A stretch of DNA of 64,000 nucleotides from Fibrobacterota bacterium (GTDB lineage Bacteria > Fibrobacterota > Fibrobacteria > UBA5070). Below, in pieces: positions 12,758 through 13,123 of the stretch; the first letter of the stretch is position 1, and every line of letters begins with the position of its first letter. Below the pieces are notes generated by a model, which saw only the letters and a program-made list of their open reading frames with translations, was not told the DNA's origin and ran no database searches. The stretch lies in assembly GCA_016715065.1 (NCBI GenBank), contig JADKBN010000002.1:212286-276285 (forward strand). Direction: 5' to 3'. The position numbers and the translations under genes were made by a program.

Positions 12758-12898
12758 GTGGATAAAATAGGTGTTGCCATGGTTTTTCTTTATTTCAGTC
12801 CAAATGTGCCGGCTCTATCCCGCCGGGCATCCGTTAACTCCTCCAAGGACTCCCAAATGACCCGATCAAAAATTCTGCTGGCCTGGGGCGCTTTGCTC

Positions 12899-13030
12899 CT
12901 GGGGCTTAGCTCGGGGGGGGGGGGGCGGGGCGGCGGGCGGCCGGGGGGCGGCGGGCGCCGCGCCGGGGCGGGCCCCCCGCCCCGGAGCAAGGCCGGGGGC
13001 GAGTGAAAGGGGGCGCGCCCACCCCTCCAC
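12899..13030. repeat. Almost pure G/C low-complexity tract (G13 run and GGCGGG repeats) inserted into a lipoprotein signal-peptide coding region
   Basis: Sequence cggggggggggggcggggcggcgggcgg...; the flanking 17-mers ctcctggggcttagctc and cctcttgggctagctcc are near-duplicates. Confidence 0.6.
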
Positions 13031-13123
13031 GCCTCTTGGGCTAGCTCCTGCGACAAGACTACAGACACGGTTGGAGGCACTGCCAAGCCATCCAATATTA
13101 CGGTCAGCCTTTCAAGCACGGAA

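Follow-up and report, generated by a model that had tools for sequence, protein, structure and literature searches.

A G/C-rich block splitting a lipoprotein signal peptide in a Fibrobacterota MAG as a probable long-read assembly artefact

The lipoprotein gene and the block within it

The stretch of DNA analysed here, 64 kb in length and called the window throughout, carries on its + strand a lipoprotein gene whose 5′ end is separated from its mature part by a block composed almost entirely of G and C. The genuine 5′ end (12857-12912) comprises the start codon, the signal peptide MTRSKILLAWGALLLGLS and the first two bases of the codon for Ser19; it has 100% identity to L002 and 99.9% to L001, the two same-strain contigs discussed below, and agrees with the N-termini of homologous proteins. 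Its last 14 nt (12899-12912, + strand, CTGGGGCTTAGCTC) are the left, exact copy of a duplicated flank, over which the BLAST alignments of the related loci L003/L006 overlap by 14 nt. There follow the orphan G/C block at 12913-13034 (122 nt, assigned to neither strand and most likely not genomic), a noisy right copy of the flank at 13035-13048 (+ strand), recognised in DNA alignments to the relatives, and the mature part of the lipoprotein at 13049-14401 (+ strand), which extends from the lipobox cysteine codon TGC to the stop and with which homologues align from CDKTTDT on.

Read as written, the ATG at 12857 encodes MTRSKILLAWGALLLGLSS, and the ORF is closed by an in-frame TGA within the block (13004-13006, + strand); after this TGA the same frame goes on via ...WASSCDKTTDT into the long ORF ending at 14401. 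An earlier note on this DNA had described a near-pure G/C block with a run of 13 G residues that splits a lipoprotein signal peptide, together with the start codon, the stop and the continuation of the frame beyond it, and the sequence and its translation bear this out. The 425-aa ORF mentioned in the same note does have its listed start at TTG 13124 (+ strand), but the open frame itself runs from 13007.

The composition of the block sets it apart from everything else in the window. It opens with G13 at 12913-12925, the sole homopolymer of at least 8 nt in 64 kb (the next run of G or C is 7 nt), and the 74 nt at 12912-12985 contain no A or T, against 18 nt for the next longest such run; at 61.7% GC, about 7e-12 G/C-only runs of 74 nt are expected. 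When the 64 kb were scanned in 60-nt segments, a G+C content of at least 88% was reached only at 12894-13007, where 65 G and 35 C were counted. The richest natural G/C-only stretch in the vicinity measures 15 nt and lies in the Gly/Cys-rich tail of a membrane-protein gene (15802-16782), and in about 100 kb of related loci the longest G/C-only run is 20 nt and the longest homopolymer of G or C is 7 nt. The G/C content of 95% or more given earlier holds for the first 74 nt (100%) and not for the block as a whole (91%). The GGCGGG repeats described there come down to weak, degenerate periodicities (TRF scores of 30-61 with 70-82% matches), and the block as a tandem repeat was rejected on the same result. 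We also rejected the block as a set of degraded direct or inverted copies of its flank, such as fold-back or a decaying read might leave, since local and end-anchored alignments were no better than those of shuffles past the terminal 14-16 nt.

In the intact allele of this 469-aa lipoprotein gene, the uninterrupted junction reads CTTAGCTCC directly followed by TGCGAC. A single C of that allele, one base ahead of the codon for the lipobox cysteine, corresponds to 136 nt in the window (12913-13048), made up of the 122-nt block and a second copy of the preceding 14-15 nt. The net gain in length is 135 nt (45 codons), which keeps the frame. The near-identity of the flanks, which had been remarked on before, is real: 12899-12912 plus C (CTGGGGCTTAGCTCC) and 13035-13048 (CTTGGGCTAGCTCC) match at 13 of 15 positions, and the right copy departs from the left by one substitution and one 1-nt deletion.

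Direct near-repeat flanks would be expected of a small mobile or structured element with a target-site duplication, whether a MITE/REP-like repeat, an intron-like element or a non-coding RNA, and the block also contains a perfect 10-bp inverted repeat (12963-12972 / 12976-12985) and folds better than most of its shuffles (z = -2.2, with 4 of 200 shuffles as good). Inverted repeats are nevertheless expected by chance in a two-letter sequence, the duplication is imperfect, and there are no terminal inverted repeats that match the flanks beyond chance. The block is present in a single copy, with no similar sequence elsewhere in the 64-kb window, and an Rfam search with it gave no match at E <= 1. 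Exact-match scans with a 36-mer and a 26-mer from the block were empty in both genome_contigs (185,579 species genomes) and metagenome_contigs (JGI metagenomes); a 23-mer from the flank had no exact match in either collection, which means that the two collections are also without the source record. Taken with its flanks and fold, this makes such an element extremely unlikely.

The restored gene and its relatives

Removing the block and keeping one copy of the flank yields the N-terminus MTRSKILLAWGALLLGLSSCDKTTDT..., which is identical to that of the homologues, and the clean lipoprotein signal with lipobox LSSC foreseen in the earlier note is indeed restored. In a protein-collection search with the restored protein, seven full-length homologues align from residue 1; three of them (P0001, P0002 and P0012) have exactly the same N-terminus, MTRSKILLAWGALLLGLSSCDKTT, and the other four (P0003, P0004, P0005 and P0008) differ in it by 1-2 residues, with LSAC instead of LSSC. 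Defining a lipobox as [LVI][ASTVI][GAS]C behind a basic N-terminus and a hydrophobic core, we find it in the restored protein as MTRSKILLAWGALLLGLSS followed by C, and as LS[SA]C in the 7 homologues. The window as written lacks it, with 45 extra codons, including a stop, between Ser19 and the Cys. Judged from these sequence comparisons, the true sequence probably runs from ...CTGGGGCTTAGCTCC straight into TGCGACAAG... and would represent an intact 469-aa lipoprotein gene with lipobox LSSC. A search of Pfam found no family for the lipoprotein or for its two neighbours.

The interruption has also shaped the public annotation. The GenBank/PGAP gene covers 13157-14401 only and starts at an internal GTG 3′ of the block. 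Its product of 414 aa, MBK8800645.1 (titled 'MAG: hypothetical protein IPN71_01035 [Fibrobacteres bacterium]' and encoded on a contig of 811,399 bp), appears as P0011 in the cluster of P0001 and is identical to the translation of window 13157-14398 at 414 of 414 residues. The presence of the block in the deposited record has therefore resulted in an N-terminally truncated database protein of 414 instead of 469 aa.

At the DNA level, the block is missing from all of the related gene copies (8 of 8). These copies (loci L003/L006, L011, L007, L008, L009, L010, L004 and L005) represent seven independent samples (ERR14653841, SRR26425197, ERR712368, ERZ27280341, ERR12388757, SRR21915726 and CP064986), with JADKEE01 also included in the DNA alignment. 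All fetched relatives read ...signal peptide...AGC-[TG]C[CGA], directly followed by TG[CT]GACAA..., with no insert. Synteny is the same in all loci, with two UvrD-type helicase genes, a RecC-like gene, a hypothetical gene, a rhodanese gene (- strand) and the lipoprotein gene (+ strand), from which it follows that the sequences on either side of the block are correctly joined and that nothing but the insert is foreign. On the left side, L003/L006 are collinear with the window at 99.8% identity over 10-11 kb with 0 gaps, and on the right side the identity is 97.0%. L006 aligns with no gaps over 11.4 kb and L011 with a single gap in 2.3 kb, located within the 14-nt flank copy; the only indel in the ~13.7 kb compared (L006 and L011 together) thus sits in the flank copy adjoining the block.

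Homopolymeric-tract contingency loci occur in surface-protein genes of, for example, Neisseria, Haemophilus and Campylobacter, and a genuine phase-variable G tract, in which slipped-strand changes of the G13 would switch the lipoprotein on and off, had been named as an alternative to an artefact. The locus resembles such systems in having a long G homopolymer (at least 9 nt) close to the 5′ end of a gene whose product is an exported surface protein. It differs from them in that tract length cannot restore the frame: with any length from G8 to G19, translation from ATG 12857 yields at most 91 aa, as the in-frame versions meet the TGA and the out-of-frame versions lose the downstream gene. The tract also lies inside 122 nt of foreign sequence with a stop, and read-through would place about 7 Arg and many Gly and Pro residues between the hydrophobic core and the lipobox. 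In the 8 related gene copies, the tract is absent rather than variable in length. These results refute the phase-variable tract, and we assign a contingency locus next to no probability.

Same-strain contigs, sequencing project and origin of the block

By exact look-up of the neighbouring rhodanese protein, we found two Logan contigs of the same strain, L001 (SRR11674008) and L002 (SRR11674012), which are 99.9% and 100% identical to the window and whose alignments both end at 12912. L001 ends in ...GCTTAGCTCC; L002 reads ...GCTTAGCTCC, then the 11-mer AATACTGTTTA, and then ends. Both carry a C at 12913, as the intact allele does, in place of the G with which G13 opens in the window, and neither contig runs across the intact junction. 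The 11-mer is absent from all fetched loci and from the window, except for a chance match with 1 mismatch at 58123. Together, the contig endings and the 11-mer indicate that the assembly graph of those runs branches at exactly 12912/12913, and this points to a branch in the source population, real or technical, at exactly the left edge of the block. In L002 (SRR11674012) the 11-mer occupies positions 1-11, abutting window 12913, and an alternative junction at this edge would be recognisable by GCTTAGCTCCAATACTGTTTA. For the right-hand side, exact look-up of the 425-aa, 414-aa, 450-aa or neighbouring 419-aa products found no same-strain contigs on record.

A branch at this position might mean that the block is wholly or partly a sign of something real. 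One form of this would be a population-level structural breakpoint at the boundary of signal peptide and lipobox in a surface-lipoprotein family that is mosaic and duplicated in tandem, whether as a site-specific break, as a rearrangement or as a hot-spot of insertion; in another, some property of the DNA would cause stalling and back-slipping during nanopore translocation, yielding junk and then a second reading of the last 14 nt. We regard this as distinctly unlikely. A local shufflon or inversion system was considered and rejected, as a search of the window for the junction motif and the right-hand copy returned only the site itself and one chance match with 3 mismatches.

Alternatively, the whole block could consist of G/C-only DNA that this strain alone acquired very recently, for instance through aberrant break repair or template switching. 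By parting the signal peptide from the lipobox cysteine and introducing a stop codon, such an insertion would have inactivated this copy of a variable surface lipoprotein. The block is present in the deposited assembly, very probably after four rounds of polishing, three of them Nanopore-based, and the same-strain contigs, presumably built from short reads, break at that very base, as if a sequence of 91% G+C were poorly covered or the site polymorphic; the gene family is, moreover, clearly variable and recombining. Against this, both L001 and L002 have C and not G at 12913, a donor sequence was found neither in the window nor in the public collections that were searched, and 74 nt without A or T are unparalleled in this genome or its relatives. 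The surroundings are 99.8-100% identical to insertion-free strains, so a target duplication of such youth should be exact, yet the flank copy contains both a substitution and an indel. An insertion of this kind is therefore unlikely.

The MAG that includes the window very probably comes from the Nanopore project PRJNA629478, to which the locus-tag series and the SRR run numbers point. A related sister MAG, CP064986 (L004), is among those listed in the Supplementary Data of Singleton et al. 2021 (PMC8012365). Two runs of the same project, SRR11673978 (Nanopore) and SRR11674035 (Illumina) (PMC11809585), bracket in number the runs SRR11674008 and SRR11674012 of the same-strain contigs. The project methods name only PromethION (R9.4.1, with Guppy 2.2.3 flip-flop) and HiSeq X (2x150, with Q20 trimming) as sources of reads, and describe an assembly by CANU 1.8 with corMinCoverage=0, followed by polishing with Racon (--include-unpolished), twice with Medaka and once more with Racon on the basis of the HiSeq X reads (PMC8012365).

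This bears on the cause proposed in the earlier note, namely that poly-G tails of two-colour Illumina reads (NextSeq or NovaSeq) had been assembled or polished into the contig. The HiSeq X is a four-colour instrument, and the data set, very probably made up of Q20-trimmed HiSeq X reads on a Nanopore backbone, is very probably without two-colour reads. The block does resemble such tails in its non-biological composition, a long G run that degrades to G/C-only sequence, which fits dark or red-only signal in the chemistry described in the fastp paper, where poly-G tails are a problem of NextSeq and NovaSeq (PMC6129281). Unlike them, however, it is internal to a contig rather than at an end, and it is followed by a flank copy with an indel, which is atypical for Illumina errors; the same junk would also have to recur in several reads to reach the consensus. 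Two-colour tails are thus very unlikely as the source, and this part of the note was probably wrong.

We consider it likely, on comparison of the available sequences, that the block is an assembly or polishing artefact in a long-read contig and no real genomic feature. Its absence from all relatives, including near-identical strains, argues for this, as do the disagreement of the same-strain contigs at its first base, a composition without parallel in the genome or in ~100 kb of related loci, and the lack of any copy in the window or any exact match in the two public collections. Indel noise confined to the flank copy, with the rest of ~13.7 kb clean, is the signature of an unpolished long-read consensus. 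The suggestion of an assembly artefact in the earlier note accordingly finds strong support in the agreement of the restored N-terminus with that of the homologues and in the comparison with 8 related copies that are without the block and with same-strain contigs that stop at its first base and differ from it there.

As to the step of the pipeline responsible, we infer that a local error during the Oxford Nanopore metagenome assembly placed ~122 nt of G/C junk in the contig consensus, and that the final 14 nt of the signal-peptide coding region entered it a second time in a poorly called form. Candidate sources of the junk are a low-quality or chimeric read segment that corMinCoverage=0 allowed to stay, failure of the consensus where the site is heterogeneous, and an effect of the polishing window. 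Short reads from the true allele would have been clipped, being unable to align over a spurious insertion of 135 nt, and the last polishing would then have left the region unchanged; the block could have survived polishing in a pipeline that keeps unpolished sequence. The error probably occurred here because the site is near the end of a leader and signal-peptide module that is common to divergent alleles and tandem paralogues (the block lies ~11 nt short of the end of the module common to all copies), and in a mixed sludge population the reads of other alleles or paralogues would begin to diverge around this site; the branch in the source population, real or technical, falls at this very base as well.

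Several observations sit less well with an artefact. The block would have outlasted one Racon and two Medaka rounds with Nanopore reads, which is easier to explain if many long reads carry it, by systematic miscalling or because it is real, than if it stems from one junk read. Its net length is a multiple of three, although the chance of this is 1 in 3 and it may be a coincidence. The discontinuity of L001 and L002 falls exactly here, with the 11-nt extension AATACTGTTTA in L002. To our knowledge, there is no documented failure of Nanopore sequencing, CANU, Racon or Medaka that gives G/C-only junk.

Residual errors in Nanopore and PacBio assemblies truncate predicted proteins ('Mind the gaps', bioRxiv 10.1101/285049), and the present case is similar in that a conserved gene is disrupted in a single assembly, very probably a long-read one, that the annotated protein has 414 aa as against 469 aa in relatives and that the error would have outlasted several rounds of polishing. 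It is dissimilar in scale, as such errors are usually homopolymer indels of 1-2 nt, whereas here 135 nt of junk with a re-copied flank stand in a contig that is otherwise free of indels. We found no published description of exactly such a type of artefact (135-nt junk with a re-copied flank).

The lipoprotein family and what the locus means

The genuine gene has a conserved leader, which lies outside the artefact. A stem-loop at 12805-12829 (+ strand, TGTGCCGGCTCTATCCCGCCGGGCA) is found ~28 nt upstream of the lipoprotein start codon, and in an RNAalifold analysis of 9 alleles and paralogues (the window, L003, L004, L007, two copies each from L009 and L010, and L011), 3 of 8 stem pairs keep pairing through two-sided changes and the loop, ATCCC, does not vary. 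The stem-loop has no match among Rfam families; it may be a structured RNA leader or else a palindromic operator common to the gene family.

Sequence comparison places the lipoprotein in a family that is tandem, mosaic and variable. In L009 and L010, a further paralogue (401 aa) that shares the leader and signal peptide is located between the rhodanese gene and the 469-aa gene, forming tandem pairs at 8713-9918 and 10001-11410 in L009 and at 3355-4560 and 4643-6052 in L010; the window member is that at 13049-14401. P0002 is a chimera, with ~145 N-terminal aa like those of P0004 and a remainder identical to the window, and the switch falls near a DPDPVDPDP linker. L007 and L008 match the window at 99.7-99.9% only from 13422 onward, and the identity between the window and L003 changes from 99.8% left of the lipoprotein gene to 97.0% inside it. 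As a lead only, the underlying genes recall families of variable surface lipoproteins that share a conserved leader and signal-peptide module, such as the vsp/vsa type of Mycoplasma, since they too have mature regions that are divergent or mosaic behind a leader and signal peptide that are conserved, and they occur as tandem paralogues. They differ from these in that no recombinase, inverted recombination sites or silent cassettes were seen in the window, and the block is no part of such a system.

Two further observations concern the neighbourhood. L011 (SRR26425197) has a near-identical lipoprotein allele with 2 aa differences, and a terminator-like hairpin (L011 1-30, cccgccgactttagtcggcgg) precedes the gene there instead of the rhodanese-side sequence, suggesting that the gene stands behind another gene and is probably the second of a tandem pair. 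Further downstream in the window, a 43-nt segment (15739-15781) recurs in inverted orientation at 13614-13656 of L004 with ~98% identity; it lies in a G/C-rich region between the 419-aa gene and the membrane-protein gene with the Gly/Cys-rich tail.

If the artefact reading is true, a public MAG contains 135 nt of non-genomic sequence, which is a matter of data quality, and G/C-only junk inside a contig need not stem from two-colour Illumina chemistry. MBK8800645.1, which is without its signal peptide and lipobox, would then escape recognition as a surface lipoprotein, and its gene might be counted wrongly among pseudogenes or phase-variable genes. If the block were real instead, it would show that a variable surface-lipoprotein gene was inactivated very recently at a breakpoint of the population, which would be of modest and strain-specific interest.
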